This document shows positions 4,700 to 37,128 of a stretch of DNA of 64,000 nucleotides, one piece after another (position 1 is the stretch's first letter; the number at the start of each line of letters is the position of its first letter). The notes under the pieces were generated by a model that was given only the letters and a program-made list of their open reading frames with translations, searched no databases and was not told the DNA's origin. The position numbers were made by a program, and so were the translations under genes. This DNA comes from Candidatus Latescibacterota bacterium (GTDB lineage Bacteria; Latescibacterota; UBA2968): NCBI GenBank assembly GCA_965204745.1, contig OZ242010.1:4096001-4160000 (forward strand). The letters are read 5' to 3'.

Positions 4700-5339
4700 C
4701 TTGAGTCATTTCTCCCATCTCGCGTCTCACTTGTGGAAGGGCGGTGCGGGGACTGACAACTGACAATGCGAATTAAGAGTAGAAAGCGAGTAAGAAGCAA
4801 GCCGCAACCCATCATCCAAAGACCTGAACGAGGTTCTGTTGACATTTTGTTTTTGAGCGATGAGCGTGACCGCAAAATAGAGAAAGCCTCGATCCTCACC
4901 TCGCCACCCTGCTGCCCGTGCGTGCCCATCCGCTCCGCCCTGCTACCCGTGCGGCCTCACCTCGCCACCCAACCGTGTCTGAATCGCGGATTAAACGGAT
5001 TAGGGGATTGCGCGGATTACCCCACACCGCCCTACCGCCATAGCCCTATCCCCCCGGCCCCCTTTCCTACGAGGAAAGGGGGAGCGCATGGCTTTCTTAA
5101 AGGTTTGCATCCAGGGCTGTTTTGATGGCTTTGGGCGAATGGATCACGCCATGAAAATCCAAAAACCCTTACACAATCCCTCGCACAACCTCTCGCCATT
5201 CCCCCTTCCTCTTAGGAAGAGGGCCAGGGGGTAGGTCCCCCTCGCAAAACCGCTCACAGTTCCCCCTTCCTCGTAGGCACAGGCGTAGCCTACAACGAAG
5301 CGTAGCGAGTAACGGGGCTAGGGGGTAGGTCCCAATTCC
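4700..5339. repeat. Composite repeat cluster: IS5-like end, AATCCGCG repeat and REP hairpins (CCCCTTTCCT-nnn-AGGAAAGGGG)
   Basis: AGGTTCTGTTGACATTT at about 4831. 4900-5240 is an inverted copy of blocks in 18330-18850, and 5047-5339 is an inverted copy of 36828-37125. Confidence 0.85.
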
Positions 5340-5385
5340 AAAAAGTAAAGCCCGAGTTCCCTGTGAACCCGGGCTTTACTTTTTT
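5340..5385. terminator. Intrinsic, probably bidirectional terminator of giant gene A
   Basis: AAAAGTAAAGCCCG...CGGGCTTTACTTTT hairpin with A/T tails on both sides. Confidence 0.8.
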
Positions 5386-5397
5386 GTTTTTCGTCGT

Positions 5398-5589
5398 TCA
5401 GCCTGTCGAGCCAAAGCCGGCGGCGGAGATGAGGAAAAGGGATTCGATCTCTTGCTTTCGCATATAGGCCAGTGCATTCACACTCGCATCGCCAAAGGAC
5501 GGTGCCACGTTCGCGCTGATGGTGAGGAAGAAACTCAGGGTGTTCTCATCGCCATCTTCATCTGTGGCGGTCAGGGAACAGGCTTTCAT
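5398..5589 (-). pseudogene. Vestigial C-terminal fragment (Ig-like piece plus dockerin-like tail) behind gene A
   Basis: SLTATDEDGDENTLSFFLTISANVAPSF...FLISAAGFGSTG*; overlaps the gene A stop by ATGA and is homologous to 36672-36773. Confidence 0.55.
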
Positions 5590-8500
5590 TGGAAGTGGGA
5601 GTCGGGATAGAGGCTTCGGATGTAGGGTTCAATGGCTTGAGCGGTCGTGCGCGTAGCAGTTGGCTCGATGACGTTCCCTCTGACGAGGGCCTCGTTCCGG
5701 AAGAAGAGGACGTATCGAATGATCAGGATTATATCCGAGAACAGCCTCACATCGCCATCGCCATCCACATCGAGAATGTTCTGATTGACCAACGTGTCGA
5801 GGTAGGGTTCAATTTCTTGAGCGGTCTTGCGCGTGGCAGTTGGCTCGATGACGTTCCCTCTGAGGAGGGCCTCGTTCCGGAAGAAGAGGACGTATCGAAT
5901 GACCAGGATTATATCCGAGAACAATCTCACCCGGCCATCGCCATCCACATCCAAGTTGGCACTCGGTATCGCGGATTGGAGTTGAAATTGCACGGTGGTG
6001 TCCATGCCGGCATACTTCAAGACCGGGTACTGATTCGTCGCGCCAAAGGTCCACGGATCATCGCCGCCGGGTTGTCCGTCAAGGTTGGCATTCCAAGTGG
6101 AGAAGATGAGGGTGTAGCCGGTGGGGGATTGGAGCGCGCTGGTCGTCTGGCCGGTAACGCCGCCACCGCCGGCGCTGGTTGTGCAACCGTTGCTGCCGCC
6201 GGATGTACAGCCGCTGGTTTGGGTGTCCCAGTAGCTTGCGGTGCCGCCCGTGCCGGAGCCTATCAACCCGCCGATGGTTGTTAGCGTTCCGCTGGAGCGA
6301 GTAACCACGCCGGTGGAGTAGGAGTTCGTTACGGAGCCGCCTTGGCTTGCTCCGAGCAGTCCGCCGACGTGCTCAGGGCCGCTGACGGATGCGGTGGAGT
6401 AGCTTGAGGTAATCGCGTTGGGCGTCCATCCGACCAACCCGCCGGCGACCCTAGTCGTCGCCGAAACGTTGCCGGTGGAGTAGCAGGCGACGACTGTGCC
6501 GCGCAGGGCGCCGACCAGAGCGGCGGCATATTGGCCTCCCGCAACACTGGCGTTGGTTACGCCGACGGACTCGATGCGGGAGGCGGTGTCGGCGTTGCCG
6601 AATAATCCCACTTCAGTGAGGGAGGGTCGGTTGATGGTCAGGTTGTCGATAGTGTAGCCGTTGCCCTTGAAATCGCCGGTGTATCTGGCGGCGTCTGTGC
6701 CGATGGGTAGCCAGCCGTCGCCGTTGTTCCAGTAGGTGGCGTCTGCTTGGGTGATTTGGTCGTCGCCATTCTCGTCAAAGTCGAGGTTGTTGAGCAGTTC
6801 GTAGCCGGTGCAGGTTCCGGAAGGGCAACCCATCCGGCCATTGCTGGTGATGTCGCGGTCGGGAAAGGCGGCGTTGTAGGTCATGGTATCATTATCGGCG
6901 ACGACCCCATCGCCGTTGAGATCCCAGCGGATGGCATGTAGTTGCGCCAGCGTCTCAATGTCGATGAGGCCATCGCCATCGCTGTCGTAATTGATCGCGT
7001 AGGGCGTGCCCATGACCTCGTCCGAGGGCGTGCTATCGGTCCCACCTGCCAGGGTGGCAAGGACGCGCACTGTGTAGGGTGTGCCTATCGTCAGGTTCTC
7101 TATCGTGTAGGTCGTGGTGCTCCCTCCAGAGACCGTCTCCTGGCGGGAAGAAGTGTTGTAGCTTTGTCCACCGGACTTCCACTGCACCTTGTATCCCGTC
7201 GCGCCGGTTGCCTCGGTCCAAGCCACAACGAGTTGGACCGGCCCCGGCGTCACGCGCACATTGGTGGGCCTGGTTGTCGCCAAGGTCACCATGACTTCCT
7301 CCGAAGGAGCACTGTCGGCTACATTGGTACGCGTGGCGATGACGCGAATCGCGTAGGTCGTCTCTGCGGTCAGCCCAGAAATTTTGTAGGTCGTGGTGCT
7401 CCCGCCAGCGATGGTGGCTTGCCCGTGCGTGGCGGACTCCTCATCGGCGGCGGGATAAGTCTCTGACCCGGATTTCCACTGCACCTTATACCCGGTTGCG
7501 TTGGACACCGCATTCCAAGTCACGGTCAGCGTGTCCACCTTCGCCGCCACCATCACAGTCGGACTGCCCAGCAGGGGAACGCCGGTCACTTCCTCCGAGG
7601 GGGCACTGTCGGCTACATTGGTACGCGTGGCGATGACGCGAATCGTGTAGGTCGTCCCTGCGGTCAGCCCAGAAATTTTGTGGATCGTGGTGCTCCCGCC
7701 AGAGATAGTGGCTTGCCCGTGCGTGGCGGACTCCTCATCGGCGGCGGGATAAGTCTCTGACCCGGATTTCCACTGCACCTTATACCCTGTTGCGTTGGTC
7801 ACCGCATTCCAAGTCACGGTCAGCGTGTCCGCCTTCGCCGCCACCATCACAGTCGGACTGCCCAGCACGGAAACGCCGGTCTGCTCTGCCGACGGCCGAC
7901 CATCGGGCGCACCGGTCTTGGTGGCAATGACGCGCACTGTGTAGGTCGTCCCGGCGAGCAAGTTGGCGATCTTGTAGCGCGTCCCCGTGACGGTCTCCTC
8001 ACGCGAGGCGTCGTAGCTCTGCGCGCCCGATTTCCACTGTACCTTGTACCCCGTCGCATAACTCGCCGCGCGCCAACGCACATCCAAGGTGTCCCTTTGC
8101 ACCGTCACGGTCACACTTGTCGGAATGCCCGGCGGTTGCAAGTTATACTGCACGGTGGTATCCATGCCGGCATATTTCAACACGGGATACTGATCCGCCG
8201 CGCCAAAGGTCCACGGGTCGTCATTGCCAGGCCTGCCATCGACATCCACATTCCAATTGGCGTAGATGTCGTTGTAATCCGTTTCTGACCGCAACGCGCT
8301 GGTGGTCTTGCCCGTGCCGCCAGCACTAGTTGAGAGACTGCTACTTTCCGTATCCCAATAGCTATCGGGGCCTGTGCCAGAACCGGTAGCGAACAGACCG
8401 CCTGTCAGGTCGTTCGAATCCCCAGTCGCCGTCCCCGTGGCGTAGCTTGCCGTAATCGTACCGGCATTCTGACCCACGAGACCGCCAGCCGCTGATCTGG

Positions 8501-11500
8501 TGTTGCTCCCCCCTTGTCCCGCCACCGGCCCGGTAGCATAGGACGCTGTCACTGAAGCACCGCTACCCAGGAGACCGACCAACCCGCCGACTTCATAGAG
8601 GACGCTACTCTCCCAACTTGGCCACTTTTGTGCGGTGGCATGGGAATAGCAAGCCGCGATGTGACCGGCCAGTGCCCGGCCGACCAAACCGCCTACGCCG
8701 TAACGGGCACCCTCAACAAAACCGGTGACATAACAACCCGTTATGCGCCCGCCGTTCTGAGTACCAACTAACCCACCAACGACGTCTGTCGCGTGTACAT
8801 TGACATTGAGCAATCCAACCCCAGAAATATCGCCACTCACGGTTGAAAACAGCCCAACATTGTTCCTTTGGCTTGGCCATCGGTAGGATATATACAGATT
8901 GGAGATGGTCTTGTTATTACCTTTGAACGTACCGGTGTAAGTCCCGATGGGTATCCAGCCGGCACCACTGTTCCAGTAGGTGGCGTCTGCTTGGGTGATT
9001 GCGCCGTCGCCATTCTCGTCAAAGTCCAAGTTGTTGAGCAGTTCGTAGCCTGTGCAGGTTCCGGAAGGGCAACCCATCCGGCCATTGCTGGTGGTATCGC
9101 GGTTGGGAAAGGCGGCGTTGTAGTTCATGGTATCATTATCGGCGACGACCCCATCGCCGTTGAGATCCCAGCGGATGGCATGCAGTTGTGCCAGCGTCTT
9201 AATGTCGATGAGGCCATCGCCATCGCTGTCGTAATTGATCGTTTGGGGCATGCCCATGACCTCGTCCGAGGGCGTGCTATCGGTCCCACCTGCCAGGGTA
9301 GCAAGGACGCGCACCGTGTAGGTCGTGCCAAAAGTCAGGTTCTCTATCGTGTAGGTCGTGGTGCTGCCTCCAGAGACCGTCGCCTGGCGATCAGATGTGT
9401 TGTAGGTCTGTTGTCCGGATCTCCACTGCACCTTGTATCCCGTCGCACCGGTTGCCTCGGTCCAAGCCACAATGAGTTGGACCGGCCCCGGCGTCACGCG
9501 CACATTGGTGGGCCTGGTGGTCGCCAAGGTCACCATGACTTCCTCCGAAGGGGCACTGTCGGCTACATTGGTACGCGTGGCGATGACGCGAATCGTGTAG
9601 GTCGTCCCTGTGGTCAGCCCAGAAATTTTGTAGGTCGTGGTGCCCCCGCCAGCGATGGTAGCTTGCCCGCGCGTGACCAACGCCAGATCGGAGGTGGGAT
9701 AAGTCTCTGACCCGGATTTCCACTGCACCTTATACCCAGTTGCATCGTCCACCACATTCCAAGTCACGGTCAGCGTGTCCACCTTCGCCGCCACCATCAC
9801 AGTCGGAATGCCCAGCACGGGAACGCCGGTCACTTCCTCCGAGGGGGTACTGTCGGCTACATTGGTACGCGTGGCGATGACGCGAATCGCGTAGGTCGTC
9901 CCTGCGGTCAGCCCAGAAATATCGTAGGTCGTGGTGCCTCCGTCAGAGATTGTGGCTTGCCCGTGCGTGGCGGACTGCTCATCGGCGGCGGGATAAGTCT
10001 CTGACCCGGATTTCCACTGCACCTTATACCCGGTCGCCCCGTTCACCGCATTCCAAGTCACGGTCAGCGTGTCCACCTTCGCCGCCACCATCACAGTCGG
10101 AATGCCCAGCACGGGAACGCCGGTCTGCTCTGCCGAGGGCATGCCATCGCGGACACCGGTCTTGGTGGCAATGACGCGCACTGTGTAGGTCGTCCCGGTG
10201 AGCAAGTTGGCGATCTTGTAGCGCGTCCCCGTGACGGTCTCCTCACGCGAGGCATCGTAGTTCTGCGCGCCGGATTTCCACTGTACTTTGTACCCCGTCG
10301 CATTACTCGCCGCAGTCCAACGCACGTCCAAGGTGTCCGCTTTGGGCGTCACGGTCACACTTGTCGGAATGCCCGGCGGTTGCATTGCAAATTGTGCGGT
10401 GGTGTCCATGCCGGCATATTTCAACACGGGATACTGATCCGCCGCGCCAAAGGTCCACGGGTTGTCATTGCCAGGCCTGCCATCGACATCCACATTCCAA
10501 TTGGTGTAGATGCCGTTGTAATCCGTTTCTGACCGCAACGCGCTGGTGGTCTTGCCCGTGCCGCCAGCACTAGTTGAGAGACTGCTACTTTCCGTATCCC
10601 AATAGCTATCGGGGCCTGTGCCAGAACCGGTAGCGAACAGACCGCCTGTCAGGTCGTTCGAATCCCCAGTCGCCGTCCCCGTGGCGTAGCTTGCCGTAAT
10701 CGTACCGGCATTCTGACCCACGAGACCGCCAGCCGCTGATCTGGTGTTGCTCCCCCCTTGTCCCGCCACCGGCCCGGTAGCATAGGACGCTGTCACTGAA
10801 GCACCGCTACCCAGGAGACCGACCAACCCGCCGACTTCATAGAGGACGCTACTCTCCCAACTTGGCCACTTTTGTGCGGTGGCATGGGAATAGCAAGCCG
10901 CGATGTGACCGGCTAGTGACCGGCCGACCAAACCGCCTACGCCGTAACGGGCACCCTCAACAAAACCGGTGACATAACAACCCGTTATGCGCCCGCCGTT
11001 CTGAGCGCCAACTAACCCACCAACGACGTCTGTCGCGTGTACATTGACATTGAGCAATCCAACCCCAGAAATATCGCCACTCACGGTTGAAAACAGCCCA
11101 ACATTGTTCCTTTGGCTTGGATATCGGTAGGATATATACAGATTGGAGATGGTCTTGTTATTACCTTTGAACGTACCGGTGTAAGTCCCGATGGGTATCC
11201 AGCCGGCACCCCTGTTCCAGTAGGTGGCGTCTGCTTGGGTGATTTGGTCGTCGCCATTCTCGTCAAAGTCCAAGTTGTTGAGCAGTTCGTAGCCTGTGCA
11301 GGTCCCGGAAGGACAACCCATCCGGCCATTGCTGGTGGTGTCGCGGTTGGGAAAGGCGGCGTTGTAGTTCATGGTATCATTATCGGCGACGACCCCATCG
11401 CCATTGAGATCCCAGCGGATGGCATGCAGTTGTGCCAGCGTCTTAATGTCGATGAGGCCATCGCCATCCCTGTCGTAATTGATCCTTTGGGGCATGCCCA

Positions 11501-14500
11501 TGACCTCGTCCGAGGGCGTGCTATCGGTCCCACCTGCCATGGTAGCAGTGACGCGCACGGTGTAGGTCGTGCCAAAAGTCAGGTTCTCTATCGTATAGGT
11601 CGTGGTGCTGCCTCCAGAGACCGTCTCCTGGCGGGAAGAGGTGTTGTAGGTCTGTTGCCCGGACCTCCACTGCACCTTGTATCCCGTCGCACCGGTTGCC
11701 TCGGTCCAACGCACAATGAGTTGGTCCGGCCCCGGGGTCACGCGCACATTGGTGGGCCTGGTTGTCGCCAAGGTCACCATGACTTCCTCCGAAGGGGCAC
11801 TGTTGCCGGCCGTTGTGGTGTGCGTGGCGATGACGCGAATCGCGTAGGTCGTCTCTGTGGTCAGCCCAGAAATTTTGTGGATCGTGGTGTTCCCGCCTGC
11901 GATAGTGGCTTGCCCGCGCGTGGTCAACGCCAGATCGGAGGTGGGATAAGTCTCTGACCCGGATTTCCACTGCACCTTATACCCGGTTGCGAGGGGCACC
12001 GCATTCCAGGTCACGGTCAACGTGTCCACCTTCGCACTCACCTCCACACCCGTCGGGCTACCCAGCGTGAGAAGGGTGATCACTTCCTCCGAAGGGGCAC
12101 TGTCGGCTACATTGGTACGCGTGGCGATGACGCGAATCGCGTAGGTCGTCCCTGGGGTCAGCCCAGAAATATCGTGGGTCGTGGTGCCCCCGCCAGCGAT
12201 AGTGGCTTGCCCGTGCGTGGCGGACTCCTCATCGGCGTTGGGATAAGTCTCTGACCCGGATTTCCACTGCACTTTGTAGCTGGTCACCCCGTTCACCGCA
12301 TTCCAAGTCACGGTCAGCGTGTCCACCTTCGCATTCACCTCCACACCCGTCGGGCTACCCAGCAGGGGAACGCCGGTCTGCTCGGCCGAGGGCCGGCCAT
12401 CGCGGACACCGGTCTTGGTGGCAATGATACGCACTGTGTAGGTCGTCCCGCCGATCAAGTTGGCGATCTTGTAGCGCGTATCCGTGGTGATGGCCTGACG
12501 CGAGACGGCGTAGTTCTGCGCGCCGGATTTCCACTGCACCTTGTACCCCGTCGCATTACTCGGCGCACGCCAACGCACGTCCAAGGTGTCCCTTTGCACC
12601 GTCACGGTCACACTTGTCGGAATGCCCGGCGGTTGCATTGCAAATTGTGCGGTGGTGTCCATGCCTGCATATTTCAACACGGGATACTGATCCGCCGCGC
12701 CAAAGGTCCACGGAGCGTCATTGCCAGGCCTGCCATCGACATCCACATTCCAGTTGGCGTAGATGCCGTTGTAATCCGTTTCTGACCGCAACGCGCTGGT
12801 GGTCTGGCTCGTGCCGCCAGAACTGGATGAGCGACCACTACTTTCACTATCCCAGTAACTATGGGACACTCCGGATCGTGCAAACCCGATCAATCCGCCT
12901 AGTTGGCTGGAGTCATGTCTGCGCCCAGTGACTGTCCCCGTGGCATAGCTGGTACTAACCGAACTAGGATAAATGTCCAACCTCCCCACCAAACCGCCGA
13001 CCCTGTTATTTCCAGTCACCGGCCCGATAGCGTAGGACGCTATCACCGTAGCTTTTAGTCTGCCCACCAAACCGCCGGCCCCGTCATGATCCCACCCTCC
13101 GGAGACCTCAGCATTGGCATAGCTGGCCGCGATGACGGTATTATTACCGTTTGATTCACCCGCTAAACCGCCCACATCGTGACCAGTACCCTCAACGCGA
13201 CCCGTGACATAACAGCCCAGGATGCGACCACCCACCTGATTACCGACCAACCCACCCACTTGATTTCTGCCTCTTACATTGACACTTTTCAGCCCCAGAC
13301 CGGAAATGTTGCCGCTGACACGGCCGAACAGCCCAACATCATCCTGACCACGGTTGATGTGCAGGTTGGAGATGGTCTTGTTATTGCCCTTGAACGTGGT
13401 TGAGTAGGTGCCTCCGATGGGCGACCAGTTGGGGTAGGTGTCGGCAGAGGTTACGCTCCCGCTCCCGTCGGTGTCGAAATTTAGGTTGTTGAGCAGTTCG
13501 TAGCCGGTGCATGTCCCGGAAGGACAACCCATCCGGACGTTGCTGGTGGTGTCGCGGTTGGGAAAGGCGGCGTTGTAGTTCGTGATATCACTATCGGCGA
13601 CGATCCCATCGCCGTTGAGATCCCAGCGGATGGCATTGAGTTGCGCCAGCGTCTTAATGTCGATGAGGCCATTGCCATCGCCATCGTAATCGATCCCTTG
13701 GGGCGTGCCCATGACCTCGTCCGAGGGCGTGCTATCGCCCCCACCTGACAGGGTAGCAGTGACGCGCACCGTGTAGGTCGTGCCAAAAGTCAGGTTCTCT
13801 ATCGTGTAGGTCGTGGTGCTCATCCCAGAAACCGTCTCCTGGCGATCAGATGTGTTGTAGGTCTGTTGTCCGGACCTCCACTGCACCTTGTAGCCCGTCG
13901 CGCCGGTTGCCTCGGTCCAACGCACAATGAGTTGGACCGGCCCCGGCGTCACGCGCACATTGGTGGGTTTGGTTGTCGCCGAGGTCACCATGACTTCCTC
14001 CGAGGGGGCACTGTCGGCTAAATTGATATTGGTACTCGTGGCGATGACGCGAATCGTGTAGGTCGTCCCTGCGGTCAGCCCAGAAATTTTGTAGGTCGTG
14101 GTGCGCCCGTCAGAGATTGTGGCTTGCCCGTGCGTGGCGGCCTGAGAATCGGAGGTGGGATAAGTCGTTGCCCCGGATTTCCACTGCACTTTGTAGCCGG
14201 TCGCCCCGTTCACCGCATTCCAAGTCACGGTCAGCGTGTCCACCTTCGACGCCACCATCACAGTCGGACTGCCCAGCAAGGCGAGAACGCCGGTCTGCTC
14301 TGCCGAGGGTGTGCTATCGTTCGCACCGGTCTTGGTGGCAATGACACGCACTGTGTAGGTCGTCTCGCCGAGCAAGTTGGGGATCTTGTAGCGCGTCCCC
14401 GTGACGATCCCCTCACGCGAGGCGGCGTAGCTCTGCATGCCGGATTTCCACTGCACCTTGTACCCCGTCGCATAACTCGACGCACGCCAACGCACATCCA

Positions 14501-18008: not shown

Positions 18009-18193
18009 TTTAGTCTCCCTCCGAGGGGGGGGGGGGGGGGGGGGTACACTGTACTGATCATCCTAACAGACTGTTTTGCAATAAAATAGAACCGCGCTCC
18101 AAGACGGGGATGGGCGTCATGAACGCCAGTTTTCGCGGTGGAAACATAGGACCAAATGAGGTTCAAACAGCGGCTGAAAATGGCGGTAATCAT
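17939..18193 (-). CDS. Leader ORF of gene A running through the poly-C tract
   Basis: AAAGGAGA RBS before ATG 18193; MITAIFSRC...FIAKQSVRMISTVYPPPPPP; paralogue of 28841-29029. Confidence 0.6.
   Translation of the reverse strand: MITAIFSRCLNLIWSYVSTAKTGVHDAHPRLGARFYFIAKQSVRMISTVYPPPPPPLGGRLKWCSLLFVFCPFQPGSPCWSCPC
18025..18044 (-). repeat. C20 homopolymer (coding strand), putative phase-variation tract
   Basis: 20 consecutive G on the + strand, 16 nt upstream of the gene A ATG. Confidence 0.85.
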
Positions 18194-19000: not shown

Positions 19001-19043
19001 TTTTGTGTTTTTGTGCCTCTTGTGGCTAAAATCCCATCTCATC

Positions 19044-22093: not shown

Positions 22094-22145
22094 TCGCTCC
22101 CAAAAAAAGTGGTGCCCCCAAGCCGCCACAATCGCGATTTTTTAC

Positions 22146-23933: not shown

Positions 23934-23934
23934 G

Positions 23935-24468
23935 CTACTTGCGGAGGCCGGACAGCCTGCAAGAGAACGTATCCAGAAGGGATAAAATATCCTGTGTGAG
24001 TTCTTGTTCTGGACGACACTTTGACGCGTCGAGAACCACGACCGCGCCCCCGTTTTGCTTTGCCAGCCAGTCAACAAGTTCAAAGCCAAACCGTGCAAGG
24101 CGGTCTTGGTGGGCAACCACAATTCGCAACTTTTCTCCGCTGTGTAAGCGTTCCAGTAGGGCGACAAGGCCCTTCCGCTTTTCGTTGAGGCCTCCGTCAA
24201 TGTCTTTGACGACCTCTGCGCTGGGATAACCGGATTGAAGGAGCGCAACTTGCCCGCGCAAGTCGTCTTTTTGGGCATAACGACTGACCCGTGCATAGAG
24301 CACAAATTCAACGCCAACTTCTTCCCGCAAGAACGCATTGACATCGTAAAGTCTCCTTCCGCCTGGACTGCGAATATGCTCAATCCGACCGTCATTCGCC
24401 CACTTACGCAACGTATTCGGATGAACACCGAGCAAAGCAACCGCTTTGCGAGTATTTACATAAGGCAT
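23935..24468 (-). CDS. tnpA: IS607 serine transposase (MerR-like HTH + resolvase)
   Basis: LLGVHPNTLRKW..GGRRLY, YARVS catalytic serine and DRLARFGFEL. Confidence 0.93.
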   Translation of the reverse strand: MPYVNTRKAVALLGVHPNTLRKWANDGRIEHIRSPGGRRLYDVNAFLREEVGVEFVLYARVSRYAQKDDLRGQVALLQSGYPSAEVVKDIDGGLNEKRKGLVALLERLHSGEKLRIVVAHQDRLARFGFELVDWLAKQNGGAVVVLDASKCRPEQELTQDILSLLDTFSCRLSGLRK

Positions 24469-24709: not shown

Positions 24710-24713
24710 TTTC

Positions 24714-27700: not shown

Positions 27701-27890
27701 CTTGCGGCGTGGCATTGCGAAACCCCACGCGCACGCTCAAGATGGGCCGTTCCAACCCTTTGGGCATCAGTTTGACGGGCACGCGCCAATACGCCACGGC
27801 CCCCAGCACGAGCAACGCGATGAGGCACATGGTAATGGACACGGGCCGCAATACGGAAATGCGCGGGAGGAGTGAGGATTTGGGGGTCAT
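24714..27890 (-). CDS. RND efflux permease (AcrB/AcrD/AcrF family)
   Basis: GLVVDNAIVILENI, GVVVNNAIVLVD and RFRPILMTT; 1058 aa. Confidence 0.95.
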   Translation of the reverse strand: MTPKSSLLPRISVLRPVSITMCLIALLVLGAVAYWRVPVKLMPKGLERPILSVRVGFRNATPQETEQLITLPLEETLRTVKGIASLRSYSESNGARAIIEFRQYTDMVAAYNQVSDRLEHLKPHLPEEARDDVRVRKYDDDSWEVMWVAMAIDSTITDQFRFIETHIQRPLERVDGVGQIGFFGVQRKEVMVEVDRERMRARGVRIGEIVSTLKNDNFALAGGYVREGEKKFYVRSLARYTALREIEDIQILSRAGKVRLGEVARVVYDVPEMSWIQRIDGKPGISFGIKQESGANVVEITDRVEAKLRELERDPRLAGRVSFRVIFNQGFFIKESIRNLRETGLWGGLFAALVLLFYLRTFRMTGIITLAIPLCVMITMTALYFIGWSLNVVTMMGLMVGVGLVVDNAIVILENIYRRRGNGDTPKDAAIWGASEVGLAITMATLTTVVVFLPMMLFSGNMFMNFYMTRMGVPVCIALVGSLFVALLFIPLASVQVGKGQVRPDPKSIAMVRGGYARMLAWTLNHRRDAVLIALALTATMWMYPEFQPNPLANLKRADRGGGKVNDLSVRLKMPRHFTLEETARIVTEVEHFLEEKRAEYGYEILRVYYRPGFGYLRMYMPLKSEDPWWFIAYKNARKALGIPLDGPMERQEMVADIGEHTPKYVGVWHSLARYGDGISGESSVSVYLEGEDTEVLIGLVDEVTWRLQQIPSIVSIDTDLERADDEVRVAVDRERSNRMGVSARDIGRYIAYGLQGVSLPRFQSEDGEVRVRLYLERADRQNLNQLRNFAFSTDEGAEVALGEIASFEVSRGTGRIARYDGRVKLRIRTYTMESGRRLYEAIDKMMDGIELPRGYSWHKGERFKQLQETETSGQIGMVMAVTSVFLLMGVLFESFVLPFSVLFSIPFSFLGVYWTLYLTDTPMDTMAFIGVIVLIGVVVNNAIVLVDMINRLRADGRARFDAILEAGRNRFRPILMTTFTTVFGLLPMAVGGSNVMGVPYAPLGRTMMGGLLASTFLTLLVVPLFYTLLDDLRLALRRLSAGVFARRDVAYDVADDD

Positions 27891-28247: not shown

Positions 28248-28710
28248 CAGTAGTCAGTAGGTTGTGTTGACATTTGGGATATTTTTTGATCGTGTTGACA
28301 TTTCATTTTTTTCTGACGTTACGCACAGATTAGCAAATGTATTGTGTTGCTTGCTCATTTAAGGCGTTTGGTCCTTTGATGGCGTTGCGCGAGGGGACCT
28401 ATCCCCCGGCCCCGTTATTCGCTTCGCTCATTGTAGGCTACGCCTGTGCCTACGAGGAAAGGGGGAGCGCATGGCTTTCTTAAAGGTTTGTATCCCTAGC
28501 TGCTTTGATGGCGTTTGTGACCTATCCCCCGGCCCCTTTCCTACAAGGAAAGGGGAGTAAAGTTCCTTTGATGGCTTATATCAATGGCTACTCTGATGGC
28601 GTTGTGCGAGGGCATAAAGCGATTAAAAATCCCTTATCAATCCCCTCGCACAACCTCTCGCCATTCCCCCTTCCTCGCAGGAAGGGGGCCAGGGGGTAGG
28701 TCCCAATTCC
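28248..28710. repeat. IS5-MITE-like end plus REP cluster upstream of cassette B
   Basis: TAGGTTGTGTTGACATTT at about 28258, then sequence closely similar to 1500-1812. Confidence 0.8.
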
Positions 28711-28727
28711 CATCGTCATTTTACCAC

Positions 28728-28756
28728 TTGACAAATAATAGCGTAATTTTTAATTT
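28728..28756 (+). promoter_or_regulatory. sigma70-type promoter of cassette B
   Basis: TTGACA-17 nt-TAATTT. Confidence 0.6.
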
Positions 28757-28840
28757 TTTACCCATTCGCTATTTCGATTTTGAGCGCGGAGGAAAGGCCG
28801 TGCCCGGTCTGCGCGACAGCTTTTGCAAAGGAGACTTCAG

Positions 28841-29029
28841 ATGATTCCCGCCATTTTTCGACGTTGTTCAAACCTGTTTAGAGGCCACCGTTCTCCTGCG
28901 AAAACGGGCGTTCATGGTGCCCATTCCCGTCTTGGAGTGCGGTCCTATTTCATTGCAAAACAGTCCGTTAGGATGATCAGTACAGTGTACCCCCCCCCCC
29001 CCCCCCCCTCGGAGAGGGGGACAAAATGA
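28841..29029 (+). CDS. Leader ORF of gene B ending in poly-Pro; stop overlaps the gene B start (ATGA)
   Basis: AAAGGAGA RBS; MIPAIFRRC...FIAKQSVRMISTVYPPPPPPSERGTK*. Confidence 0.6.
   Translation: MIPAIFRRCSNLFRGHRSPAKTGVHGAHSRLGVRSYFIAKQSVRMISTVYPPPPPPSERGTK
28990..29008 (+). repeat. C19 homopolymer, putative phase-variation tract
   Basis: 19 consecutive C, 17 nt before the gene B ATG. Confidence 0.85.
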
Positions 29030-32000
29030 TGCCCCGCTACGCTCACTTGTTGGCCCTGGTCGCGCTGGGCATGCTGGTGGCATCGGGGCCTGCTTTTGCC
29101 CAAACCGACTACGACATGGACAACGACCGCCTGATTGACATCACCTCCTTGGCGCAACTGAATGCCATTCGTTGGGATCTCAATGGCGATGGTGTTGTGT
29201 CGAGCACCGACTCTACAAACTATTTCACCGCCTTCAGTAACCCCGCCTCGGGCATGGGGTGTCCGTCCGCCGGCTGTAATGGCTACGAACTGCTCAACAA
29301 CTTGGACTTTGACGAGAACAACGACAACTCAATCACCTCAGCAGACGCCACCTATTGGAACAACGGCGCCGGCTGGCTACCCATCGGCACAAGCGCCAAC
29401 AGATACACAGGCAATTTCAAGGGCAACGGATACACCATAAACAACCTGTTCATCAACCGGTCCAACACCGAGCACATAGGGCTGTTCGGCTATACTGGAT
29501 CCGGCTACAGGGTAGAAACCCTAGGCGTAACTAACGCCAATGTAACGGGGAAAAACTATACCGGCATTCTGATAGGCGCCGGTGAGAATGGAGGCACAGT
29601 CGTCGCCTGTTACACTACTGGCTCGGTCACCGGCACCGGTACTTCTACCGGTGGTCTGGTAGGATACATAGACGGAACTATCTCCACTAGCTACTCCACT
29701 GCATCCGTCAGCGGAAATCGCGAAAACGGCGGTCTGTTGGGATTTCGGTATGGCAACAGTACCTCTGTAACAAACTCCTACTCCACCGGCAACGTCAGCG
29801 GCACAGGAAGCAACATCGGCGGGCTAATAGGCAGCTTTGCCCTGAGCGGTAGCGTTTCCGCCAGTTACTGGGATACCCAAACCAGCAACCGGAATAGCAG
29901 CCCCGGCGGCGGCACAGCACAGACCACCGACGCGCTCCGATCTCCCACCGGCTACACCGGCATCTACTCCACATGGAACGCCAACATAGATGGCAACGCC
30001 GGCAACGACGATCCCTGGGACTTCGGAACGTCATCGCAGTATCCGGTGCTGAAGTACGGCGGTCATTCCCTGGTTGCCCAGGGCCGACCGGCCACCGACT
30101 ACGACATGGACAACGACCGCCTGATTGACATCACCACCTTGGCGCAACTCAACGCCATTCGCCACGACCTCAACGGCAATGGCGACGCTACCCACGCCGA
30201 TTATGGCGCCGCCTTTCCCCTCCGCAACACCAGCAATACCGGCCGGATGGGTTGCCCGTCCGGGACCTGCACTGGCTACGAGTTGCTCAACAACTTGGAT
30301 TTTGACGAGAACAACGACGGCGCAATCACCCAAGCAGACACCACCTACTGGAATGGCGGCGCCGGCTGGGCACCCATCGGCAGTAGCAACACCGCCCCGT
30401 ACACCGCCACATTTGAGGGCAACGGCAAGACGATCTCCCACCTGTACATCAACCGCTACGTCAACTATTCGGGATTTTTCGCAAGTACGGATACCACTGC
30501 CCACATCCGCTCTTTGGGGTTGGTCAACGCGGTGATCAATACGGGTCAGGGCACGGTGGGCGCGCTGGTGGGTCTGAACAAGGGTCGGATCGCGGCGAGT
30601 TACGTCACGGGGTCGGTCAAGGCGAACACCAATGTCGGCGGGTTGGTGGGCGCCGCTCAGAGGGGGTCGTACATCGTGGCGAGTTACGCCACGGCGTCTG
30701 TGGTGTGCAATCAGTCGGGGCCGTGGGGCACTGGCGGAGGGTTGGTAGGTGCCAATGGTTCGGGTGCGACGATCGCGTCGAGCTACTCGCTGGGATCAGT
30801 GACGGGGGCCTGCCTGCACAAGCATGGGCTGGCGGAAAACTCAGGTACAGTGACCGATAGCTACTGGGACACGCAAACAAGCGACATTGCCGATGATAGC
30901 GATACTGTTGCGCCGGAGGGCAAGCTGACTGCCGACTTACAATCGGTCACGTCTGCGAGCGGCATCTATGCCAACTGGGACGATCTGACCATAGATGCTT
31001 CGGGGGCCAACAATGATGATCCCTGGACCTTTGGCACGACGAATCAGTATCCGGTCTTGAAGTTTGCCGGCCTGGACACCACGGCGCAGTACGCTGCCCA
31101 ACCCGTGAATTACGACACGGATAGCGATGGCCTCCTCGAGGTCTCGACCTTGGCCCAACTGCATGCCATGCGCTGGGATCTCAATGGCGATGGGGTCGTC
31201 GCCGATAGTGATGCCATGACCTACAACGCCGCCTTTCCCAACGGGAACTTGTCAGCGAGCAAGGGGTGTCCTTCCACAGGTTGCACTGGCTACGAACTGC
31301 TCAACAACTTGGACTTTGACGAGAACAACGACGGCGCGATCACCCAAGCAGACGCCACCTACTGGAATGGCGGTGCCGGCTGGGACCCTGTGGGGCCTTA
31401 CGGCGGCACGTTCAAAGGCAACAACAAGACGATCTCCCACTTGTACATCAACCGGGGGTCTCGGCATAATACAGGATTGTTCCATGCGGTTGATGGCGAT
31501 GTTTCGGGGTTGGGGTTGTTGAATGTGAATGTGACCGGTGCTGACCGCGTGGGTGGTCTGACCGGTAATCAAGGTGGTGGGGGCACCATCTCGTCGTGTT
31601 ATGTGACGGGTCGCGTTTCGGGGTCGCGGTGGGGTGTGGGTGGTTTGGTTGGTCGGTCTTATCGCACTTCGGGCACTAATCGCATTGTGAGCAGCTACGC
31701 GCTCGTCTCTGTGCGGGTTCCTGCACATGTGACGAGTGACGGATTGGCCGGCGGTTTGGTGGGTTGGCTGACCGATCAGACCGAGGTGGTGGCGTCTTAC
31801 GCGCTGGGCTCTGTGTTCGCGGGACACAGCAACGCGGTGGCCGGCGGGTTGGTGGGTCAAATCGCGAGCGGCGGTGGCGTGACCGCCAGTTACGCGACGG
31901 GCGCAGTCACGGGTGCCGGCACGAAAGGCGGGTTGGTGGGCAGTTCGGCTGGTACAGTGACCGATAGCTACTGGGACACGCAAACAAGCGGCATTGTCGA

Positions 32001-35000
32001 TGATAGCGATACGGTTGCGCCGGAGGGCAAGCTGACCTCCGACTTACAATCGATCACGTCTGCGAGCGGCATCTATGCCAACTGGGACGATCTGACCATA
32101 GATGCTTCGGGGACCAACGATGATGATCCCTGGACCTTTGGCACGACAAAGCAGTATCCGGTCTTGACGTTTGCCGGCCTGGACACCACGGCGCAGTACG
32201 CTGCCCAACCCGTGAATTACGACACGGATAGCGATGGCCTCCTCGAGGTCTCGTCCTTGGCCCAACTGCATGCCATGCGCTGGGATATCAATGGCGATGG
32301 TGCCATAGACTCAAGTGCCACGACCGCCGATACGACCGCCTACAACGCCGCCTTTCCCAACGGGAACTTGTCAGCGAGCAAGGGTTGCCCTTCCAGCGGT
32401 TGCACTGGCTACGAACTGCTCGCCAACCTGGACTTTGACGAGAACAACGATGGCGCAATCACCCAAGCAGACGCCACCTACTGGAATAGCGGCCAAGGCT
32501 GGATGCCCATCGGCTCCGACGCCAGCCCAGCGTTACGATACACAGGCGATTTCAAAGGCAACGGCTACACCGTCCAAAACCTGTTCATCAGCCGCAACAC
32601 CGTTAGCTACCAAGCACTGTTCGGCGGCACCGGCACCAACTCCCGCATCGAGTCACTGGGCGTAACCGACGCCGATGTTACGGCAGACGACTTTAGTGGC
32701 ATTCTGGTCGGCGGCAATCGCGGCGAAATCGTCGCCTGCTACACCACCGGTCGCATGACGGGCGACAATGTCGTCGGCGGTCTGGTCGGCTGGACCGGAG
32801 GCTCCATTTCCACAAGCTACTCCCTCGCATCCGTCAGCGCAACTGAGAGGCTCGGCGGATTGGTAGGCTCAAAAGCCGCCGCCGGCTCCATAACAAACTC
32901 CTACTCCACCGGCGCGGTCAGCCTCTCCAGCGGGTCGATGACATCTATCGGCGGGCTGTTGGGCGAGTCGAATGCCGGCACAGGCACGGTTAGCGGCAGC
33001 TACTGGGATACCCAAACCAGCGGGCGCACAACCAGCCTCGGCGGTAGCGGCGCGGCGGGCAAGACGACCAGCGATCTTCAGAGCCCCACCACCTACGGTG
33101 CCACCAGCAACGACACCTACTACGGTTGGAACGCCAACATAGACGGACAACCCGGCAACGACGATCCGTGGACCTTTGGCGCGATGGATCAGTATCCGGT
33201 CTTGAAGTATGCCGGCCTGGACACCACCGTGCAATTTCAGCTCCAACCCGCGGTCGTGACGTTGGCACTGACGCCCTCGTCGATCTCGGAAAACGGCGGG
33301 ATGAGCACTGTGACCGCGACGCTGGCATACCCATCGAGCGCGGCGACGACGATCACGGTGCGCCCTGTGGCGGGGGCTTACACGGTGGCGGCGGATTCGA
33401 CGATCACCATACCGGCCGGGAGCACTGCGAACGTGTCGGATACGGTGGTCATCACAGCGGTGGACAATACCCAAGACGCGCCTAATCGCGACGTGGACAT
33501 GTCCGTTGTGGCGGGCAACGCCCAAGGCGCGGGCAGTGTGACCGAGGCGACTTTAACGATCACAGACGACGACCCTGCACCGACAGCGACGTTGGCGGCG
33601 TCACCGGCGTCGATTTCGGAGAACGGCGCGGTTTCGACGGTCACGGCGTCGCTCTCGCGTCCATCGAGCACGGCGACGACGATCACGGTGCGTCCTGTGG
33701 CGGGTGCTTACACGGTGGGGGCGGATACGACGATCACCATCGCGGCCGGGGACACGATTAACGCGTCGGACACGGTGGTCATCACAGCGGTGAACAATAC
33801 CCAAGACGCGCCTAATCGCGACGTGACCGTGTCCGGTGTGTCGCGCAACGCCCAAGGCGCGGGCAGTGTGACCGGGGCGGCTTTGACGCTGACAGACGAC
33901 GACGCTGCGCCGGACGTGACGATGGTTTTGTCGCCTGCGTCGATTACAGAGAACGGCGGTGTCTCGACCGTGACAGCGAGGCTGTCTCACACGTCGAGCG
34001 ATCCGACGACGATTACGGTGACAGTGGCACCTGTGTCACCTGCGGTTATGACCGACTACACGATAAGTACGCCGGCCACGCTGACCGTCGCGGCGGGGCA
34101 AACGATGAGCACGGGCACCGTGACGATCACAGGGGTGAATAACGCCGATGCTACGGGGAACAAGACGGTGACCGTGTCGAGTACGCTAACCAACAGCGTA
34201 GGCACGGGATCGGTCACTGATGTGACGCTGACGCTTACCGATGACGACGTGCCGAACGTGACGTTGGTTTTGACTCCTTCGTCGATTACGGAGAATGCCC
34301 AGGTTTCCACGATCACGGCGACGCTGGATCGCATCACAAACATGGCGACGACGGTCACGGTTTCAGCGACCGCGGTGGCCCCTGCGGTTGCGGGCGATTT
34401 TACGCTATCGACCGAGACCACGCTGACCTTCGCGGCGAATGTGACGACGAGCACGGGCGCCGTGACGATCACCTCGGTGAACGACACGACCGATGCACCG
34501 GACAAGCGCGTGACCGTGTCTGCAACGGTGACGGGTGGCAATGGGGCGTCGCTATCGTCTGCCGTGACCCTGACGATCACAGACGATGAGGCCGCGCCGG
34601 ATGTGGCACTGACGCTGTCGCCCGCGTCGATTGCAGAGACCGGCGGTGTTTCGACGATCACGGCGACGCTGTCGCATGCGTCGAGCGCGGCAACGACGAT
34701 CACAGTGCGTCCGGTGGCGGGTGCTTACACGGTGGGGTCGGATTCGACGATCACCATCGCGGCAGGGAACACGGCGAACGCGTCGGACACAGTAGAGATC
34801 ACGGCCGTGGACAACGCGACCGATGCGCCCAACAACGATGTGACCGTGTCTGTTGTGGCGAACAACGACCAAGGCGCAGGCAGTGTGACCGGCATGGATT
34901 TGACGATCACAGACGATGACGCCGCGCCGAACGTGACACTAATGCTGTCGCCCGCGTCAATCTCGGAGAACGGCGGCGTGAGCACGGTGAGCGCGACGCT

Positions 35001-36675
35001 GACACACCCATCGAGCGCGGCGACAACGATCACGGTACGCCCGGTGGCGAATGCTTATACCGTAGGGTCGGATTCGACGATCACCATCGCGGCAGGGAAC
35101 ACGGCGAACGCGTCGGACACGGTGGCACTCACCGCCGTGGACAACGACATAGACGCATCAGACAACGCGGTGATGGTGCAGACCGCCGCTGTGGAGAACG
35201 ACCACGGCGCGGGCACCGTGCAGGCTGCGACGTTGACGATCACCGATGACGACGAGGCGGCGATTGACGTGTCGGCGATGACCACGACGACGGTCAGGCT
35301 CCACACGACAGAGTCGGGCAGGGCAGAGACCTTCACGGTCACGCTCGCCTCCGAGCCGACGGGGAACGTAGCCCTCTCGGTGGTCAGTTCAGACACGACG
35401 GAAGGCACTGTATCGCCCTCGGTGCTGACCTTCTCATCGACAACATGGCGCACGGCGCAAACCGTGACCGTGACCGGGCAGGACGATACTCCCGCCGCCG
35501 TCGATGGCAACCAGAACTATACGGTCACCCTTTCGGTGAACCAGACGGATACGCAGGACACCAACTACGACGCGCTCACCGCGATCAGCGTGTACATGGT
35601 CAACCGCGATAACGATTTCGGCTTGGACATCAGCGCGCTGACCGGGCAGGCGACAGAGGCCGGTGCCTCGGCGACCTTCACGGTGGCCCTGCTGACGCAA
35701 CCCACGGCGGCGGTGACGATTTCGGTGACGAGCCAAGACCCGAGCGAGGGGCGGGTTGAGCCTGCGATGCTGACCTTCACGACGTCAGGCTATAACACGG
35801 CACAAACCGTGACCGTGACCGGGCAAGACGACATCATCGACGACGGGAACGTCACCTGGACGGTGCGACTCGCCTCGTCAAGCGGCGATGCCAACTACAA
35901 CACCCTTTCGGACGAGGATGTTCCAGTGACGACGACCGACGATGAAGATGCGCCGACCGTGACGTTGGTGCTGATGCCCTCGTCCATCTCGGAAAACGGC
36001 GAGGTTTCCACGATCACGGCGACCCTATCGCACCCATCGAGCGCGATCACGACGATCACGGTCTCTGCTACGCCTGTGTCCCCTGCGACTGCGAGCGACT
36101 TCACGCTATCGAGTGCAGACACGCTGATCATCGCGGCGACGACCACAACGAGCACGGGCACCGTGACGATCACCGCAGAGGACAACAACGACCAGGCAGA
36201 CGAGAAGATGGTCAGGGTGTCTGCAACCGCAAACAACGCCCAAGGCATCACCGATCCTTCGCCCGTGACCCTGACCCTGACCGATGACGAAACACCGAGT
36301 GCCAACTTGGATGTGGATGGCGATGGCCGGGTGAGATTGTTCTCGGATATAATCCTGGTCATTCGATACGTCCTCTTCTTCCGGGAAGAGGCCCTCCTCA
36401 GAGGGAACGTCATCGAGCCAACTGCCACGCGCAAGACCGCTCAAGAAATTGAACCCTACCTCGACACTTTGGTCGGTCAGAACATTCTCGATGTGGATGG
36501 CGATGGCGATGTGAGGCTGTTCTCGGATATAATCCTGATCATTCGATACGTCCTCTTCTTCCGGAACGAGGCCCTCGTCAGAGGGAACGTCATCGAGCCA
36601 ACTGCTACGCGCACGACCGCTCAAGCCATTGAACCCTACATTCGAAGCCTCTATCCCGACTCCCACTTCCAATGA
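29026..36675 (+). CDS. Giant secreted adhesin-like protein B: signal peptide, 4 GLUG-like beta-helix modules, Calx-beta/cadherin-like Ig repeats, tandem dockerin-like C-terminus
   Basis: 2549 aa with signal peptide ending AFA|Q; VTL.L.P.SISENGG...LTITDDD repeats; C-terminal ~126 aa nearly identical to gene A. Confidence 0.9.
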   Translation: MMPRYAHLLALVALGMLVASGPAFAQTDYDMDNDRLIDITSLAQLNAIRWDLNGDGVVSSTDSTNYFTAFSNPASGMGCPSAGCNGYELLNNLDFDENNDNSITSADATYWNNGAGWLPIGTSANRYTGNFKGNGYTINNLFINRSNTEHIGLFGYTGSGYRVETLGVTNANVTGKNYTGILIGAGENGGTVVACYTTGSVTGTGTSTGGLVGYIDGTISTSYSTASVSGNRENGGLLGFRYGNSTSVTNSYSTGNVSGTGSNIGGLIGSFALSGSVSASYWDTQTSNRNSSPGGGTAQTTDALRSPTGYTGIYSTWNANIDGNAGNDDPWDFGTSSQYPVLKYGGHSLVAQGRPATDYDMDNDRLIDITTLAQLNAIRHDLNGNGDATHADYGAAFPLRNTSNTGRMGCPSGTCTGYELLNNLDFDENNDGAITQADTTYWNGGAGWAPIGSSNTAPYTATFEGNGKTISHLYINRYVNYSGFFASTDTTAHIRSLGLVNAVINTGQGTVGALVGLNKGRIAASYVTGSVKANTNVGGLVGAAQRGSYIVASYATASVVCNQSGPWGTGGGLVGANGSGATIASSYSLGSVTGACLHKHGLAENSGTVTDSYWDTQTSDIADDSDTVAPEGKLTADLQSVTSASGIYANWDDLTIDASGANNDDPWTFGTTNQYPVLKFAGLDTTAQYAAQPVNYDTDSDGLLEVSTLAQLHAMRWDLNGDGVVADSDAMTYNAAFPNGNLSASKGCPSTGCTGYELLNNLDFDENNDGAITQADATYWNGGAGWDPVGPYGGTFKGNNKTISHLYINRGSRHNTGLFHAVDGDVSGLGLLNVNVTGADRVGGLTGNQGGGGTISSCYVTGRVSGSRWGVGGLVGRSYRTSGTNRIVSSYALVSVRVPAHVTSDGLAGGLVGWLTDQTEVVASYALGSVFAGHSNAVAGGLVGQIASGGGVTASYATGAVTGAGTKGGLVGSSAGTVTDSYWDTQTSGIVDDSDTVAPEGKLTSDLQSITSASGIYANWDDLTIDASGTNDDDPWTFGTTKQYPVLTFAGLDTTAQYAAQPVNYDTDSDGLLEVSSLAQLHAMRWDINGDGAIDSSATTADTTAYNAAFPNGNLSASKGCPSSGCTGYELLANLDFDENNDGAITQADATYWNSGQGWMPIGSDASPALRYTGDFKGNGYTVQNLFISRNTVSYQALFGGTGTNSRIESLGVTDADVTADDFSGILVGGNRGEIVACYTTGRMTGDNVVGGLVGWTGGSISTSYSLASVSATERLGGLVGSKAAAGSITNSYSTGAVSLSSGSMTSIGGLLGESNAGTGTVSGSYWDTQTSGRTTSLGGSGAAGKTTSDLQSPTTYGATSNDTYYGWNANIDGQPGNDDPWTFGAMDQYPVLKYAGLDTTVQFQLQPAVVTLALTPSSISENGGMSTVTATLAYPSSAATTITVRPVAGAYTVAADSTITIPAGSTANVSDTVVITAVDNTQDAPNRDVDMSVVAGNAQGAGSVTEATLTITDDDPAPTATLAASPASISENGAVSTVTASLSRPSSTATTITVRPVAGAYTVGADTTITIAAGDTINASDTVVITAVNNTQDAPNRDVTVSGVSRNAQGAGSVTGAALTLTDDDAAPDVTMVLSPASITENGGVSTVTARLSHTSSDPTTITVTVAPVSPAVMTDYTISTPATLTVAAGQTMSTGTVTITGVNNADATGNKTVTVSSTLTNSVGTGSVTDVTLTLTDDDVPNVTLVLTPSSITENAQVSTITATLDRITNMATTVTVSATAVAPAVAGDFTLSTETTLTFAANVTTSTGAVTITSVNDTTDAPDKRVTVSATVTGGNGASLSSAVTLTITDDEAAPDVALTLSPASIAETGGVSTITATLSHASSAATTITVRPVAGAYTVGSDSTITIAAGNTANASDTVEITAVDNATDAPNNDVTVSVVANNDQGAGSVTGMDLTITDDDAAPNVTLMLSPASISENGGVSTVSATLTHPSSAATTITVRPVANAYTVGSDSTITIAAGNTANASDTVALTAVDNDIDASDNAVMVQTAAVENDHGAGTVQAATLTITDDDEAAIDVSAMTTTTVRLHTTESGRAETFTVTLASEPTGNVALSVVSSDTTEGTVSPSVLTFSSTTWRTAQTVTVTGQDDTPAAVDGNQNYTVTLSVNQTDTQDTNYDALTAISVYMVNRDNDFGLDISALTGQATEAGASATFTVALLTQPTAAVTISVTSQDPSEGRVEPAMLTFTTSGYNTAQTVTVTGQDDIIDDGNVTWTVRLASSSGDANYNTLSDEDVPVTTTDDEDAPTVTLVLMPSSISENGEVSTITATLSHPSSAITTITVSATPVSPATASDFTLSSADTLIIAATTTTSTGTVTITAEDNNDQADEKMVRVSATANNAQGITDPSPVTLTLTDDETPSANLDVDGDGRVRLFSDIILVIRYVLFFREEALLRGNVIEPTATRKTAQEIEPYLDTLVGQNILDVDGDGDVRLFSDIILIIRYVLFFRNEALVRGNVIEPTATRTTAQAIEPYIRSLYPDSHFQ

Positions 36676-36773
36676 AAGCCTGTTCCCTGACCGCCACAGA
36701 TAAAGATGGCGATGGCAAAATTGGATTCGACGATTTCCTCATCTCCGCCGCCGACTTTGGCTCGACAGGCTGA
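36672..36773 (+). pseudogene. Vestigial dockerin/EF-hand tail
   Basis: Translates as MKACSLTATDKDGDGKIGFDDFLISAADFGSTG*. Confidence 0.55.
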
Positions 36774-36788
36774 ACGACAAAAAAAAAC

Positions 36789-36827
36789 AAAAGCCCGGGT
36801 TCACAGTGAACTCAGGCTTTACTTTTT
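36789..36827 (+). terminator. Intrinsic terminator of gene B
   Basis: AAAGCCCGGGTTCAC-A-GTGAACTCAGGCTTT followed by ACTTTTT. Confidence 0.75.
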
Positions 36828-37128
36828 GGAATTGGGACCTACCCCCTAGCCCCGTTACTCGCTACGCTTCGTTGTAGGCTACGCCTGTGCCTACGAGGAA
36901 AGGGGGAACTGTGAGCGGTTTTGCGAGGGGGACCTACCCCCTGGCCCCCTTCCTAAGAGGAAGGGGGAATGGCGAGAGGTTGTGCGAGGGATTGTGTGTA
37001 AGGGTTTTTGGATTTTCATGGCGTGATCCATTCGCCCAAAGCCATCAAAACAGCCCTGGATGCAAACCTTTAAGAAAGCCATGCGCTCCCCCTTTCCTTG
37101 TAGGAAAGGGGGCCGGGGGGTAGGTCCC
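36828..37128. repeat. REP cluster, inverted copy of 5047-5339
   Basis: Near-identical reverse complement by direct comparison. Confidence 0.85.

Follow-up and report, generated by a model that had tools for sequence, protein, structure and literature searches.

Giant surface-protein genes A and B of a Latescibacterota bacterium as likely members of a dispersed mosaic family with a common tail cassette

The giant genes and their inverted matches

The 64,000 nt stretch analysed here, referred to as the window, corresponds to positions 4,096,001 to 4,160,000 of contig OZ242010.1 from a Candidatus Latescibacterota genome (GCA_965204745.1) found in sponge and marine metagenomes; one cluster mate is labelled Gemmatimonadota at NCBI. 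The genome, a 5.48-Mb contig, is here named G000. The window contains two giant open reading frames (ORFs), genes A and B, in divergent orientation. An initial annotation described them as paralogous giant adhesin genes whose long inverted repeats enclose a 32-kb candidate inversion or shuffling locus, and both do encode giant secreted proteins. Gene A (5586–18008, minus strand) encodes 4140 amino acids (aa) and gene B (29026–36675, plus strand) 2549 aa, each with a start that resembles a signal peptide by inspection. In addition, A contains a cadherin-like domain, six GLUG beta-helix modules and about 18 FN3 spacers, and B contains four GLUG-type modules and an Ig-like stalk; both end in a tail that is here called type 1. 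When the whole of gene B was searched against Pfam, no domain was returned, and its stalk was recognised as Calx-beta-like from its motif and from its relatives, for many of which Calx-beta is precomputed.

Upstream of A, a leader ORF (17939–18193, minus strand) passes through a C20 tract (18025–18044) in a frame that differs from that of the gene. The leader ORF of B (28841–29029, plus strand) includes a C19 tract (28990–29008), and its stop codon overlaps the start codon of B. Clusters of repetitive extragenic palindromic (REP)-like repeats are found upstream of both genes, at 18325–19039 and 28258–28709, respectively. At the 3′ ends are the tail cassettes (5586–5967, minus strand, in A and 36294–36675, plus strand, in B), which encode two 60-aa dockerin-like repeats. 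In A, the stop codon is followed by a relic coding sequence (5390–5585, minus strand), a terminator-like hairpin (5332–5392, minus strand) and a REP-like cluster (5045–5340); the hairpin and REP-like cluster of B together occupy 36780–37131 (plus strand). A consensus terminator scan missed the hairpins of A and B. Folding detects them (z = −8.4 in A and −4.2 in B), which bears out the terminator of the initial annotation.

Self-BLAST and alignment of the window revealed three inverted matches between the genes, in keeping with the long 3′ repeats and mirrored 5′ regions reported earlier. At the 3′ ends, 5547–5967 matches 36294–36714 over 421 bp (98.3%) and 5045–5437 matches 36734–37124 over 396 bp (96%), and these blocks include exact inverted matches of 165, 104 and 91 bp. 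In the 5′ regions, 18002–18528 matches 28519–29032 over 530 bp (80.6%). Between the 3′ blocks lies a net 90-bp indel, which falls in the relic coding sequence of A, as the earlier description of a vestigial tail with an indel of about 90 bp had it. Read as coding sequence, the extra bases in A look like what remains of an Ig-like domain, which five other genes have intact, followed by an apparent relic dockerin-like end, so the label of vestigial tail was right. The module caps are also shared at the DNA level, with inverted matches of 68–91%, and the longest exact match between the bodies is 38 bp. The inverted repeat is therefore real and far beyond chance. We conclude, with a probability of roughly 0.7 for the reading as a whole, that A and B are two of 43 dispersed mosaic genes for giant surface proteins that end in one tail cassette, that RecA-type ectopic gene conversion and not programmed inversion is at work, and that the inverted repeat is a by-product of the opposite orientation of A and B.

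A dispersed family with a common tail

The 381-bp tail cassette terminates 43 genes for giant secreted proteins in G000, which total approximately 295 kb, or 5.4% of the contig. There were 44 tail matches, with F29 duplicating F28; here, F numbers denote family genes of G000 (A is F32 and B is F33) and P numbers denote proteins from other contigs or assemblies. The encoded proteins are modular and 1200–6400 aa long. With 37 copies of the 5′ leader cassette alongside the 43 tails, the inverted repeats are not specific to the A/B locus. Tail identity is at least 95% in 273 of 450 opposite-strand pairs of family genes, 9 of which lie within 70 kb. Across G000, 870 inverted matches of at least 300 bp and at least 95% identity were found, 25 of them within 60 kb, and 18 of these 25 are longer (1.0–1.4 kb) than either A/B arm. 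Poly-C runs of differing length precede most family copies. High-copy repeats flank 30/43 family loci on both sides, compared with 8% of 1496 other ORFs and 7/50 large ORFs. Seven members (F18, F24, F34, F38, F42, F43 and F44) appear frameshifted or split, with a frame that opens inside the body or an interrupted tail.

When the 36 tails of standard length were compared, leaving aside seven non-standard ones, the median difference was 10/381 bp. The tails of A and B differ at six positions, and 16% of the 630 pairs are equally close or closer; six other genes have tails closer to that of A than B's is. Tail similarity is independent of chromosomal distance (rho 0.02), and the tail of B is identical to that of F9, 2.5 Mb away. 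Thus, while the gene conversion or recent duplication proposed earlier for the 3′ ends of A and B is consistent with their having been homogenised, the pattern is family-wide and the closest tail to that of B is that of F9. Leaders diverge by approximately 24%, as opposed to 3% for tails, and there is hardly any link between leader distance and tail distance (Mantel p 0.09, 28 loci). The tail profile was matched in 2/30 other genomes of the bacterial family, once each. A scan of a genome collection with the tail returned no confirmed relative, and a metagenome scan with the alpha/beta-hydrolase gene next to A returned 57 loci, of which the best was 86% identical on a fragment and none was conspecific.

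The bodies of the genes also share sequence. Among 903 pairs of family genes, exact body tracts of at least 100 bp were found in 173, of at least 200 bp in 35 and of at least 500 bp in four. An exact 4534-bp tract lies behind different 5′ ends in F3 and F39, which are separated by at least 1.3 Mb. This identity (F3, 416281–423363; F39, 4597022–4603630) points either to conversion in the very recent past or to a collapse in the assembly. A and B fall into different subfamilies, and each has exact tracts of 200–800 bp with genes megabases away. Gene B is a mosaic of F1-like and F9-like blocks, with exact tracts of 616 and 792 bp, respectively, and the partners of A are F43, F26, F27 and F37; no exact body tract of at least 40 bp was found between A and B. 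A second contig, of 5,279,007 bp, encodes an AcrB and an FAD oxidoreductase that are 99.2% and 98.7% identical to those of G000, and 20 family proteins were seen in it. Several proteins on this contig switch parent in blocks; P0006, for example, alternates between F1 and B, and P0036 does so between F38 and F18. In total, 46 proteins were painted for parent blocks, and runs tests on the block mosaics gave 0/2000 shuffles in all seven comparisons. Chimeras were identified at the protein level in the other contigs and at the DNA level within G000. Body shuffling is, on this sequence evidence, real and genome-wide. The chimeric adhesins predicted by the initial annotation thus do exist as family members, though the A–B fusion that it had in mind is not supported.

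Comparison with other assemblies revealed that the tail can differ where the body does not. P0078, the counterpart of A in another assembly, is 98.8% identical to it over 4014 aa of body and 57.4% identical in the tail. For counterparts of F22, F36 and F7, body and tail identities are 94.6 and 59.0%, 95.2 and 58.2%, and 97.0 and 55.7%, respectively, and for those of F26 and F20 they are 98.5 and 49.2%, and 95.7 and 48.3%. Overall, the proteins with alternative tails have bodies that are 90–99% identical and tails that are 48–59% identical. Clustering of 78 tails, with F12, F28, F29 and F44 left out, assigned 68 to type 1 (38 from G000, 19 from the 5.28-Mb contig and 11 others), six to type 2, three to type 3 and one to type 4, to which P0269, found separately, can be added. 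The 40 G000 tails in this set comprise 38 of type 1 and two of type 3. The search for type 2 covered proteins of 829–2641 aa, and type 4 was counted without a search by its own query. Type 2 is found on the counterparts of A, F22, F36 and F7 and on B-like and F2-like proteins, and type 4 on the counterparts of F26 and F20. Identity averages 91% among the six type-2 tails and is 98.3% between the two of type 4, and the changes of each type occur in both internal repeats. A type-2/3 hybrid tail, in P0246, suggests short conversion tracts. Hence, the tail is the most uniform part of these proteins within the genome and the most divergent part between assemblies, and it appears to be a replaceable unit, the counterparts being known from protein sequence and not from DNA. 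In rhs, too, C-terminal displacement puts a different module on a conserved body. Rhs tips diversify within a genome; the pattern here is the reverse, with a tail that is uniform within the genome and differs between assemblies. A literature search that took in few subscription papers and no supplements returned no description of this family or of tail replacement. In F12 (G000 2222045–2222713) and P0247, another, shorter dockerin-like end lies beyond a type-1 tail. Together with the relics of a longer end after the stop codon of A, these suggest that the ancestor of the family had both ends.

Two other explanations bear on these patterns. The family could have arisen in a recent burst of duplication with module shuffling at birth, its tails being alike because they are young and under purifying selection, conversion having little part at present, and the alternative tails marking separate lineages that exchange bodies horizontally. 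Of the species searched, this one alone shows the expansion. At the sites of A and at least F15, F22 and F40, the gene is absent from G016 or other relatives, and the type-2 and type-4 proteins carry no strain assignment. All of this fits such a burst. We nonetheless consider it unlikely, as the tails are far younger than the bodies and leaders, synonymous sites included, counterparts in a 99%-identical strain carry blocks of other paralogs, and a hybrid tail exists. Alternatively, the near-identity and the mosaics could stem from errors in assembling or polishing repeats, which is very improbable. The variants of the tail copies are distinct and patterned, family proteins are also encoded on a second large contig, and types 2 and 4 are each coherent and occur on more than one body. 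The summed contig depth of the tail was tens of times that of unique flanking sequence in 4/4 runs from four studies, a rough sign that gives no copy number. In favour of an artefact, G000 is apparently derived from a metagenome, and contigs from four independent runs over window positions 1200–7000 break at repeats, bridge no junction and cannot confirm any.

The 32-kb block and its flanking genes

Comparison with relatives went against inversion of the block. Gene A lies between an ABC ATPase gene (3923–4693, plus strand) on its left and the alpha/beta-hydrolase gene (19044–20966, minus strand) on its right. In four of five relatives (G001, G006, G019 and G016, the last with a 670-bp insert) these two genes are adjacent in their present orientation, and in G018 they are 92 kb apart. 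The site of A is thus without the gene in the relatives, and the interior of the block has not been left flipped. In G016 (L021 4560–5270), the site holds a REP-like unit and a short, different ORF, and may be an insertion hot spot.

Gene B is at a synteny break. The FAD oxidoreductase gene to its right (37190–38779, plus strand) follows, in 4/5 relatives, a gene that is found here approximately 2 kb to the left of the window; approximately 39 kb are therefore foreign to the right junction of B. This block (window −1945 to 37180; G000 4094055–4133180) consists of core genes that are unlinked in the relatives, some of them (PhyH, MoxR and the ABC ATPase) joined by spacers of 16–25 bp without a repeat. 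G018 has a different 6.5 kb at the junction.

The interior includes a PdxA-family gene (21050–22129, minus strand) and an AcrB-family transporter gene (24714–27890, minus strand), an ordinary interior gene. These are adjacent in 19/20 congeners, and here an IS607-type element (22791–24468, minus strand) and a hypothetical gene have been inserted between them. The element, present in six copies genome-wide, comprises tnpB and a serine-recombinase gene, tnpA (23935–24468), which in this copy has an early stop. Other recombinases, namely two tyrosine recombinases and 56 IS110 matches, lie elsewhere in the genome. The earlier statement that there is no dedicated invertase therefore stands for the locus and its surroundings, but a serine-recombinase gene, albeit an interrupted IS607 tnpA, does sit inside.

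The block could still be a working invertible locus, in which RecA or the resident serine recombinase flips the interior and so swaps promoters or generates A/B chimeras. The sap locus of Campylobacter fetus is a model for this. There, clustered paralogous genes for surface-layer proteins have common ends and one invertible promoter. Like sap, the genes described here are paralogs with common ends, and rearrangement would be driven by homology without a dedicated invertase; unlike in sap, each gene has its own leader, the copies are dispersed, no single promoter is common to both genes and no sign of a flipped state was found. The exact 3′ matches are long enough for RecA. Moreover, in the approximately 300 bp past the terminator, and nowhere else, A and B are each other's unique best match. 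They rank 17th of 903 pairs in this match, and no other of the 24 close pairs ranks above 150. A and B have thus probably exchanged DNA at least once, a point in favour of local exchange on the sequences compared. The GC skew is negative in the interior and positive in the right flank, which would also fit a flip.

By geometry, though, a crossover in the 3′ blocks would carry both genes with their own leaders and promoters and would change a few tail residues at most, making it nearly silent for both proteins. Chimeras of A and B need crossovers in the bodies, where exact matches reach only 38 bp, and the counterpart of A in another assembly is not chimeric with B. Longer inverted pairs within 60 kb of each other occur 18 times elsewhere in the genome, the left junction is oriented as in 4/5 relatives, the recombinase is the interrupted IS607 TnpA, and the skew is scrambled genome-wide and not reliably tied to family loci. 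A working invertible locus is accordingly quite unlikely, and on the features tested (locus-specific repeats, an invertase, and an effect of the flip on coding or expression) the block is not a member of that class. RecA may still flip the block in rare cells of the population; the contigs available for this comparison were short and broke at the repeats. Loci of gene-altering programmed inversions and shufflons are, in the available text of PMC9881135, enriched for neighbouring invertases. The present block resembles them in having inverted repeats within or beside oppositely oriented paralogs and differs in the long, family-wide homology and in the IS607 TnpA being the only recombinase inside.

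GC-skew switches were also tried as traces of inversion. Only 2/18 statistics gave p < 0.05, and none held with a gap-matched null. G000 lacks a two-replichore skew pattern and contains approximately 1246 high-copy repeat clusters (4.9% of bases). The IS110 family, which appears expanded with its 56 matches, was rejected as an agent; in the copies inspected, one end borders on a 7-bp tandem repeat and not on the REP-like clusters of A and B. If family genes had undergone reciprocal crossover, family genes would be expected at both broken ends, and this was found at 0/256 of the adjacencies broken between G000 and G016 (88% identity), in a comparison that covered 2.4 of 5.66 Mb. The 256 are from 721 adjacencies in all, so that G000 is heavily rearranged as a whole, and the ends broken were 24/35 of those next to family genes, 224/521 of those next to REP-like clusters and 247/849 of those next to neither.

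Probable gene conversion, known systems and a possible tail partner

The tail scored 23.1 bits against the Dockerin_1 profile, for which the cut-off is 22.9. The tail has the duplicated Ca-binding-loop/helix repeat expected of a dockerin, with aspartates that are conserved in an alignment of 42 sequences, and the best PDB sequence matches are dockerins (E 0.007 and 0.015). A model of the tail with a predicted local distance difference test (pLDDT) score of 95.6 gave a dockerin as its best Foldseek match, which is weak (E 0.71, template-modelling score 0.35); the fold from a single sequence was unusable (pLDDT 46). The domain is widespread and often C-terminal, with 3071 representatives at 50% identity. 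Dockerin_1 is recorded on 12–16% of the members of its atlas neighbours, and the recognition value is below the threshold of the tool. Three G000 ORFs match Cohesin, and none is a long cohesin array.

RecA-type ectopic gene conversion would likely keep the tails alike within a strain and shuffle the body modules, a form of concerted evolution. RecA, MutS and MutL were found in family searches. New copies may spread as units of leader, gene, tail and terminator between REP-like clusters, exchanges would mostly resolve without crossover, and a new tail type could sweep through the whole repertoire of a strain. Selection may keep the tails uniform if all of the proteins must bind one partner, for anchoring or export, through the dockerin-like tail; a common partner is our inference, offered to explain the uniformity of tails within a genome. 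The putative poly-C switch in the leader would add on/off variation.

Several observations weigh against this reading. MutS and MutL should restrain exchange between diverged sequences. No partner of the tail was identified among the G000 ORFs that match Cohesin, and the dockerin fold match is weak. Family genes, B included, are found at synteny breaks more often than REP sites are (24/35 versus 224/521, p 0.004). The evidence for types 2 and 4 consists of proteins alone, and that they come from single strains, cover whole repertoires and occupy the same chromosomal sites is assumed. Metagenome assemblies that are rich in repeats can contain false mosaics, and frameshifts occur in some contigs of the other assemblies. 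Finally, conversion cannot be fully separated from a recent duplication burst with selection using one genome, in which 18/42 variable tail codons vary at synonymous positions only.

A more speculative extension, which we hold only tentatively, is that the tail serves as a strain-level docking code. Some 40 giant adhesins would carry one dockerin-like type, and an imported type would be driven through the dispersed repertoire by gene conversion while the bodies remain 95–99% identical. If so, co-resident sponge strains would keep private anchoring or export of common adhesin bodies, and this would be a bacterial molecular drive that switches interaction specificity on dozens of unlinked genes. 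Sweeps of tail types through repertoires would offer a testable, natural case of concerted evolution switching a protein-interaction tag. They would also imply a new anchoring partner for the tail domain, which is widespread. For genome scans, the lesson of this family is that an inversion switch should not be read from long inverted repeats between paralogs.

In pathogens, gene conversion has been described among small sets of adhesin paralogs, and here it would involve 43 recombining genes, 5.4% of the chromosome, in an uncultured sponge-associated bacterium. What would be new is family-wide conversion with alternative tail types. The closest analogue appears to be Helicobacter pylori, in which babA, babB and babC are dispersed loci with similar 5′ and 3′ ends that form chimeras by intragenomic gene conversion and show 5′ simple-repeat phase variation, according to the accessible text of PMC4552749. 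By analogy, the family may work like bab; dispersed paralogs with conserved 5′ and 3′ ends and chimeric alleles between paralogs were both found here. It differs in having 43 loci rather than three, more than 10 times the copy number, in encoding modular fibres of 1200–6400 aa rather than outer-membrane proteins from genes of approximately 2.2 kb, in the position of its poly-C tract in a leader ORF and in the alternative types of its common tail. Pfam gave no sign of homology to the Helicobacter Hop outer-membrane proteins for A or B, A matching FN3, GLUG and cadherin-like domains.

Cellulosomal dockerins fall into sequence groups that differ in cohesin specificity, as set out in the available text of PMC5301203. 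Like them, the tail described here is a duplicated Ca-loop/helix module found on many secreted proteins and divided into sequence groups. Unlike them, it has 60-aa repeats with extra helices and a weak structural match, no scaffoldin was found in G000, and its types appear to differ between assemblies rather than coexist in one genome (in G000, 38 are type 1 and two are type 3).

The most scaffold-like candidate seen in G000 is L209 (3220380–3226526), a secreted-looking protein of 1900 aa. Its N-terminal part matches cohesin, another stretch looks cohesin-like by eye, and the interior has long repeats. Separately from the family, approximately 30 G000 ORFs form a second set that ends in a shorter dockerin-like tail, with a motif pair near −57 and −24 from the end, and one example lies in the window at 41379–44183.

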